Of a stretch of DNA of 64,000 bases, positions 57,845 to 57,921 are shown one piece after another. The DNA is from Escherichia coli. GTDB lineage: Bacteria; Pseudomonadota; Gammaproteobacteria; Enterobacterales; Enterobacteriaceae. Each line of letters starts with the position of its first letter. The first letter of the stretch is position 1. Below the pieces are notes generated by a model. The model was not told where the DNA came from. It saw only the letters and a list, made by a program, of their open reading frames with translations, and ran no database searches. Location of the stretch: assembly GCF_011045215.1 (NCBI RefSeq), contig NZ_CP049202.1. One strand, 5' to 3'. The position numbers and the translations under genes were made by a program.

Positions 57845-57921
57845 AATTACCCCCGAATTGATAGCGAATTGATAGCGAATTACCCCCGAATTACCCCCGA
57901 ATTACCCCCGAATTACCCCCG
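57845..57921. repeat. Array of seven tandem 11-bp repeats (AATTACCCCCG x5, AATTGATAGCG x2)
   Basis: Units at 57845, 57856, 57867, 57878, 57889, 57900, 57911; fills the spacer between two genes. Confidence 0.9.

Follow-up and report, generated by a model that had tools for sequence, protein, structure and literature searches.

An 11-bp tandem array abutting an Sf6 gp1-type small-terminase-like gene in CPZ-55-like islands of Escherichia coli: a possible packaging-recognition site

Repeated small-terminase sites in described systems

In phage lambda, cosB sits just upstream of the small-terminase gene and comprises three 16-bp sites, with an IHF site between them, next to the cosN nick site. The element (R3-I1-R2-R1) represents three repeated sites for the small terminase, TerS (PMC6092414). 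In SPP1/SF6 pac, direct repeats extend over the promoters and the beginning of terS; the TerS rings measure ~ 300 Å around, neighbouring helix-turn-helix motifs are separated by approximately one turn of B-DNA, and a bent stretch of ~ 100 bp has been proposed to wrap these rings and to act as a transcription/packaging switch (PMC4737164). For the recognition of DNA by ring-forming TerS proteins, the "nucleosome" and "threading" models are both described as unsupported (PMC9611059). Phage satellites offer two further points of reference. SaPIs lacking a large terminase encode their own TerS homologue, which recognises a pac site in the island genome and redirects packaging by the helper, while the replication origins of PICIs lie directly 3' of pri-rep and comprise a pair of iteron sets with an AT-rich region between them (PMC6092414).

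The locus described here was found in a 64,000-nt stretch of an E. coli genome (hereafter, the window), in which an array of 11-bp units abuts the start of a small-terminase-like gene. Similar to the pacL/pac regions of the Bacillus phages SPP1 and SF6, the array lies on the 5' side of the terS-like gene and consists of direct repeats in predicted bent DNA of about 100 bp. The SPP1 repeats, however, are few, dispersed and imperfect, whereas the array is built of perfect head-to-tail units, with two types that follow a fixed order and with a unit number that is polymorphic; moreover, the protein encoded next to the array belongs to the fold family of the Shigella podovirus Sf6 and not to that of SPP1, an assignment made here from its sequence and a structural model. 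Lambda cosB shares with the array the presence of repeated units just upstream of a small-terminase gene, but lambda gpNu1 and the array-side protein of the Sf6 gp1 type are members of different families. As SaPI-type satellites do, the islands considered here lack a large terminase and encode a TerS homologue; the SaPI TerS family is unrelated, and the present islands also carry a tape-measure gene. The origin iterons of PICIs and SaPIs resemble the array in being short direct repeats in a phage-satellite-like island, but the position next to pri-rep and the iteron sets flanking an AT-rich melting region are absent at the array. The CPZ-55 element of E. coli K-12 belongs to the same island family, encodes the homologous Sf6-like TerS protein YffO and possesses a phased yffN-yffO spacer that is predicted to be curved; it differs in that the spacer contains no exact repeats, the TerS-like protein retains a GRP "AT-hook" and the tape-measure gene is missing.

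Repeated TerS sites beside terS genes are therefore already known. What appears to be new is an array of two unit types, perfect, head-to-tail and polymorphic in copy number, that precedes a TerS gene of the Sf6 fold and keeps its phase across CPZ-55-like islands; a literature search found no mention of such an array before an Sf6-fold TerS gene.

The array and its genes

The array occupies positions 57845–57921 and reads A B B A A A A on the + strand, with A = AATTACCCCCG and B = AATTGATAGCG. The seven perfect head-to-tail units of 11 bp, five of type A and two of type B, agree with the description given in the sequence-only reading of this DNA. The neighbouring genes lie on the minus strand, and in their direction the order, 5' to 3', is A A A A B B A, where A stands for CGGGGGTAATT and B for CGCTATCAATT. 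An AATTCG core is common to both units and recurs every 11 bp, and with one such core per 11 bp all units would face nearly the same side of the helix; the earlier remark that the period approximates one helical turn is supported. A degenerate eighth unit, a' (AATAACCATCA on the + strand; 57922–57932, minus strand), matches A at 7 of 11 positions. The seven units and the degenerate one fill the 89-bp spacer between two genes that the sequence-only reading had called satellite-like, and the spacer is indeed filled: the ATG of the 133-aa ORF (57844–57842) directly abuts the array, and the stop codon of the 93-aa ORF (57936–57934) is located one base beyond the degenerate unit. Since A reads CGGGGGTAATT on the coding strand, the last, ATG-proximal unit supplies a Shine-Dalgarno-like GGGGGT four bases ahead of the ATG. 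The GC content of the array is 46%, with coding sequence abutting both of its ends; the B units (64% AT) account for 22–33 bp between A units and contain an IHF-like core that differs by one mismatch in a by-eye comparison (TATCAATTCGCTA vs WATCAANNNNTTR).

The array is far beyond chance, as indicated by the A-unit counts, the detected repeat period and the self-identity of the region. Within the 64 kb, all five exact copies of A belong to the array, and allowing at most one mismatch yields 7 matches against 1.08 expected, a number reached in 0 of 100 shuffles. Exact B is likewise confined to the array in the 64 kb; the B count by itself is not significant. Tandem Repeats Finder (TRF) reports a period of 11 with 97–100% matches, and the self-identity at shift 11 of the 88-bp stretch at the array (0.83) is the highest in the 64 kb (mean 0.258, sd 0.057). 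A CRISPR array, which requires unique spacers between its repeats, was rejected in agreement with the sequence-only reading, since the units here are joined head-to-tail with no spacers.

Other tandem repeats were also detected in the window. The strongest is a repeat of 471 bp (2.7 copies, 99% identity; 41653–42937), which may sit in a large repetitive gene. Degenerate 23/47-bp repeats (TGGCAT...CGATCAC...) at 25969–26092 cover the 3' end of a 560-aa ORF (24400–26082) and the start of the next ORF, and short tandem duplications are present at 28611–28722 (55 bp × 2, 91% identity) and 20138–20200 (33 bp × 1.9).

The gene that begins at the array (57443–57844, minus strand; 133 aa) encodes a homologue of K-12 YffO. 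The protein matches Pfam PF20901 (Sf6_terminase; E 2.5e-12) and phrog_1482 ("terminase small subunit"; E 2e-12), and its family profile retrieves the Sf6 gp1 structures 3hef and 4dyc from the PDB with E ~ 1e-12. In the AlphaFold2 monomer model (pLDDT 86), helices at residues 27–38, 43–47, 55–64, 66–92 and 101–126 form an N-terminal three-helix helix-turn-helix unit followed by a long helical hairpin, and a Foldseek search of the PDB with this model returned Sf6 gp1 as the sole significant fold (probability 1.00, TM 0.54–0.60). Judged by these profiles and the predicted structure, the protein is a TerS homologue of the Sf6 gp1 type, and K-12 YffO has independently been noted as an Sf6 gp1 homologue (PMC10380284). 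The exact proteins of the window module are present in E. coli assemblies. Phage TerS homologues are distant (< 45% identity); a search of the TerS-like protein against viral contigs found no relatives, and a peptide-pattern scan of one genome per species confirmed none.

The gene on the other side of the array (57934–58215, minus strand) encodes the 93-aa protein, for which the confident fold model is a plain three-helix bundle with no significant structural neighbour and no detected DNA-binding fold. Downstream of the terS-like gene, a 172-aa gene (56925–57443, minus strand) has a start that overlaps the terS-like stop. It is of the type found in the island locus L004 (85% identity) and not of the type found in L001, which shows a mosaic exchange just downstream of the terS-like gene. 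Upstream, two small island ORFs of 133 aa (58337–58738) and 99 aa (58740–59039) follow in the same orientation, and the row of co-oriented genes is headed by a 73-aa gene for an AlpA/excisionase-type helix-turn-helix protein (59082–59303, minus strand; phrog_66, phrog_668), whose counterparts in relatives match Pfam Phage_AlpA/HTH_17. Between the small 133-aa ORF (58337–58738) and the 93-aa ORF, a GC-rich hairpin followed by a T-run is found on the + strand (58310–58326), antisense to the island genes; it resembles a terminator that would stop transcripts running in against the operon.

The element ends at an IS110-family transposase gene (55669–56721, minus strand; NF033542, E 1.6e-103), which replaces the tape-measure gene and the remaining island downstream of the 172-aa gene; the same context is found in L024–L026. 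On the other side lies an IS2/IS3-family transposase fragment (60593–61282, + strand). No integrase gene was seen beside the element in the ORF lists from 44000 to 64000, and defence-system models gave nothing for six ORFs in or beside it. The element of the window is an IS-truncated remnant of a CPZ-55-like island, which may no longer function.

In related complete genomes, the module is located in islands of ~ 9–10 kb with an IntZ-type integrase, inserted in most cases between eutA and eutB, the CPZ-55 site of K-12, and otherwise at yghO or rssA. Strains with an intact island include KSC9 (NZ_CP018323) and GF3-3. Two genes after the terS-like gene, the intact islands encode a tail tape-measure protein of 725–733 aa (phrog_1538, E 1e-103). 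Its gene (3111–5291 in L001; also present in L005, L008, L019 and L030–L049) is missing from the window downstream of 56925. Intact islands contained no large terminase, portal, capsid or other tail genes, and L010 adds an HK97 gp10-like gene. A satellite-like island with a tape measure of its own is unusual. A search of the plasmid collection gave no match to the island segment.

Alleles of the array and spacers of related islands

To compare alleles, we used the window and 30 further E. coli loci in which the TerS-like protein is at least 95% identical. The sequence-only reading had named related elements as the place to look for the array, and there it is present: the same two units occur at the same position in all 30 further loci, with 4–7 perfect units in five arrangements. 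On the coding strand, following the degenerate unit, these are AAAABBA (the window and L001), AAABBA (2 loci), AABBA (18 loci, the mode), AABBBA (4 loci) and AABA* (5 loci; A* carries one SNP). All A/B-type relatives have the degenerate unit, which differs among them by one or two bases, so that counting it the arrays comprise 5 to 8 units, with 6 in the commonest allele. The five AABA* loci are draft assemblies; their flanking proteins and IS110 junction are identical to those of the window, while the array is three units shorter and differs by one SNP. Only the internal run lengths vary, as expected from replication slippage, while neither the order nor the two outermost units change. The ATG-proximal unit, like its distance to the ATG, is constant across the alleles. 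The array was also considered as a phase-variable contingency locus. Copy-number polymorphism is present, but the array is intergenic, its spacing to the ATG is constant and no promoter is predicted across it, which speaks against such a switch.

In more distant islands, a spacer of 93–117 bp occupies the same position with other sequences, which are mostly phased at ~ 11 bp. L004, with a TerS-like protein 81% identical, has units of the CTAAG type, and L009 and L010 (44–53%) have GGGGTCAGAGA and TTAGCGA-type units. No exact repeats are present in L011 and K-12 (about 48–49%) or in L008 and L013 (35–37%), where A/T tracts lie approximately one turn apart. A shift of 11 gives the best self-match in the A/B, L004, L009, L010, L008 and L011 spacers (P < 0.001 against shuffles), and the AT/GC periodicity peaks at 10.5–11 bp in most of these six types, in L013 and in the K-12 yffN-yffO spacer. 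In K-12 MG1655 (L029, 5995–6111), this spacer is 117 bp long, and its AATT/A-tracts are phased at 10.5–11 bp. Because this K-12 spacer is phased and predicted to be curved, the family feature can be studied in K-12 itself. The spacer of the L019/L020 TerS type, from the same island family, shows no periodicity, so phasing is widespread but not universal. As a control, the region upstream of terS in phage mEp021 showed no repeat, no periodicity and no predicted curvature.

Curvature estimates, indicative only, were made with a dinucleotide-wedge trajectory model, in which the 98-bp stretch over the array ranked 8th of 12,781 windows in the 64 kb; in a pure AA-wedge model, the array stretch ranked 5th. 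Within the loci of the A/B, K-12, L011, L008 and L013 types, predicted curvature reaches its maximum, or comes close to it, at the spacer, while the L004, L009 and L010 spacers are periodic yet not predicted to be curved.

Outside the islands, the exact double-A unit is absent from viral contigs. Scanning for AATTCG-N5-AATTCG-N5-AATTCG returned 38 loci in the viral collection and at least 120 in the genome collection, which are unrelated and come from diverse taxa; one borderline Sf6-TerS match (E 0.001) was found near them.

An important question is which of its two neighbours the array travels with. Across 55 locus pairs, which are non-independent, the 9-mer similarity of the array correlates with the identity of the TerS-like protein (Spearman 0.95; 0.96 for residues 1–64), whereas over such non-independent pairs its correlation with the identity of the 93-aa protein is 0.15. 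The same A/B units are found in loci whose 93-aa proteins are only 57% identical, and other units or none in loci whose 93-aa proteins are 82–86% identical. The gene downstream of the terS-like gene has also been exchanged independently. Tracking the TerS-like and not the 93-aa protein in this comparison, the array forms a single inherited module with the terS-like gene. The module would fit a protein-site pair, and it could also reflect plain physical linkage. The 93-aa protein, a generic three-helix bundle with no significant match and no co-variation with the array, was rejected as the binder of the array.

The window-type and L004-type TerS-like proteins show 28 differences, approximately 18 of them in the N-terminal arm and helix-turn-helix. 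In the alignment, a 4-residue gap at residues ~ 19–25 deletes the GRP "AT-hook" from the TerS-like proteins of the A/B-array and L004 types; the motif is kept in K-12 YffO, the other island types and Sf6 gp1. The two types lacking it are the two whose spacers contain G-rich repeats and not A/T tracts.

Candidate functions of the array

The sequence-only reading had treated the 11-bp period as typical of arrayed DNA-binding sites, and for the units as candidate sites this is still the best general reading; its chosen example, the iterons of satellite/PICI origins, is unsupported. The adjoining gene had not been recognised there as a small terminase homologue, and this identity shifts the likeliest function to a packaging-recognition site. 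We tentatively favour, at a probability somewhat short of even, the reading that the array is a pac/cosB-like docking track for a ring of the island's own TerS and not a replication origin. It lies beside the terS-like gene and ends at the ATG, and it combines repeats with curvature predicted in silico over several helical turns. The absence of a large terminase, portal and capsid from the islands makes a SaPI-like strategy of a TerS protein plus its site plausible.

The steps that we infer are as follows. Upon induction by a helper phage, the TerS-like protein would form a ring with its helix-turn-helix motifs facing outward and approximately one DNA turn apart. These motifs would dock cooperatively on successive units, wrapping roughly 55–90 bp, and the complex would hand the island DNA to the helper's large terminase for cutting and packaging, the helper's enzyme being needed because the island has none of its own. 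Since the track extends as far as the ribosome-binding site and start codon, its occupancy could also hinder transcription into terS, corresponding to the transcription/packaging switch proposed for SPP1. Gain or loss of units by replication slippage would alter the length of the track. A more specific version, which we consider doubtful, is that the array is a copy-number-variable track with one site per turn, wrapped in a nucleosome-like manner by a ring of the Sf6 fold, and that its length tunes how an island with a tape-measure gene and no large terminase competes for the helper's packaging motor. The simpler equation of 8 units × 11 bp = 88 bp with one wrap around an Sf6 octamer fits the window allele, but the modal allele has 6 units, and as a general rule it was rejected.

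Several observations count against a packaging site. The family is annotated as a cryptic prophage, the unit number varies, the L019/L020 spacers are not phased and those of L004, L009 and L010 are not predicted to be curved; the co-variation with TerS may only mirror the linkage of the array with the adjacent gene. In P22-like phages, pac lies inside the terS gene and not upstream of it. Furthermore, the in vitro DNA binding of TerS proteins from pac phages is weak and not very specific, and the model of wrapping is itself disputed (PMC9611059).

Rather unlikely, in our estimate, is a purely cis-regulatory spacer, in which curved upstream DNA and/or operators, recognised by RNA polymerase, by a nucleoid protein or by a regulator from the island or the helper, set the transcription of the terS-like and downstream genes, with no role in packaging. 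In K-12, the yffOP transcription start has been mapped in vitro with sigma-S RNA polymerase and is sigma-S-preferring (PMC3141248), which puts a promoter upstream of yffO, with the homologous spacer as a plausible location; promoters are, moreover, commonly preceded by curved DNA and phased A/T tracts. Regulation of this kind would be compatible with a pac site, since SPP1 pac overlaps promoters. Consensus scans of the coding strand, however, predicted no sigma-70-type promoter and no terminator in the window, K-12, L009, L004 and L011 spacers, and the array extends right to the ATG. The unit sequences also differ completely between island types without co-variation of the AlpA-type regulators or the 93-aa protein, and the latter has no DNA-binding fold.

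It is also unlikely that the array is a slippage-prone minisatellite with no function beyond carrying the ribosome-binding site, derived from a duplicated Shine-Dalgarno unit and drifting in copy number. This would account for the five length and order alleles among 31 loci, including the difference of three units and one SNP between loci with identical flanking proteins, for the coincidence of the ATG-proximal unit with the Shine-Dalgarno sequence and for the decayed state of the window element. Nevertheless, the phase of 10.5–11 bp persists without shared repeats in K-12, L011 and L008, at TerS identities of 35–49%, where neutral indels should have destroyed it, and the variation is restricted to internal units between a fixed first and last unit in a fixed order.

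An element acting in the mRNA, either as tandem Shine-Dalgarno-like GGGGGU sequences or as an RNA G-quadruplex of four G5 runs that tunes translation of the terS-like gene, is very unlikely. Each A unit does carry GGGGGU on the coding strand, and the window and L001 have four consecutive G5 runs with 6-nt loops; however, the predicted RNA fold of the spacer is no more stable than that of shuffles (z = + 0.95), Rfam gave no match for a spacer RNA, and repeated G runs are missing from K-12-type spacers. In most alleles no more than two A units are adjacent, which leaves too few G runs to build a quadruplex, and the G-quadruplex was therefore rejected as a conserved feature.

The least probable function is that of origin iterons, at which an island or helper initiator would bind the units and open the DNA nearby: direct repeats at the helical-turn period, G-rich A units that flank AT-richer B units in a loose echo of two iteron sets around an AT-rich region, and replication-type proteins elsewhere in some relatives (DUF5906 in L016; a DEAD helicase and a DnaD_N-like protein in L011) speak for it, but the neighbours of the array are a three-helix bundle and a TerS homologue, no initiator gene adjoins it in any locus inspected, in contrast to the position of PICI origins 3' of pri-rep (PMC6092414), a true AT-rich unwinding element is lacking, as the B units were judged too short and too GC-rich for melting, most relatives have no recognisable replication gene at all, and the array co-varies with the terminase gene.

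If the array is indeed a packaging site, it would be of use beyond this island. Known pac sites are diffuse and TerS binding is weak. An array made of two perfect, phased unit types would offer a substrate of unusual clarity, and the natural alleles of 4–7 perfect units, together with the alternative unit sequences, could be used for footprinting, cryo-EM and specificity swaps. Should nucleosome-like wrapping hold true, the array would provide, ready-made, a substrate on which this mode of DNA reading by ring terminases becomes visible. For the CPZ-55/YffO family, which E. coli K-12 also carries and which may represent a type of phage satellite not yet characterised, the packaging reading would offer an initial clue to function. 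An array that is no more than a slippage-prone spacer would, by contrast, matter little.

Finally, the protein search revealed many distant TerS-like relatives of 200–340 aa that contain 2–4 tandem helix-turn-helix domains of the Sf6-TerS type per chain. Such tandem-domain proteins might amount to an arrayed helix-turn-helix reader in covalent form.
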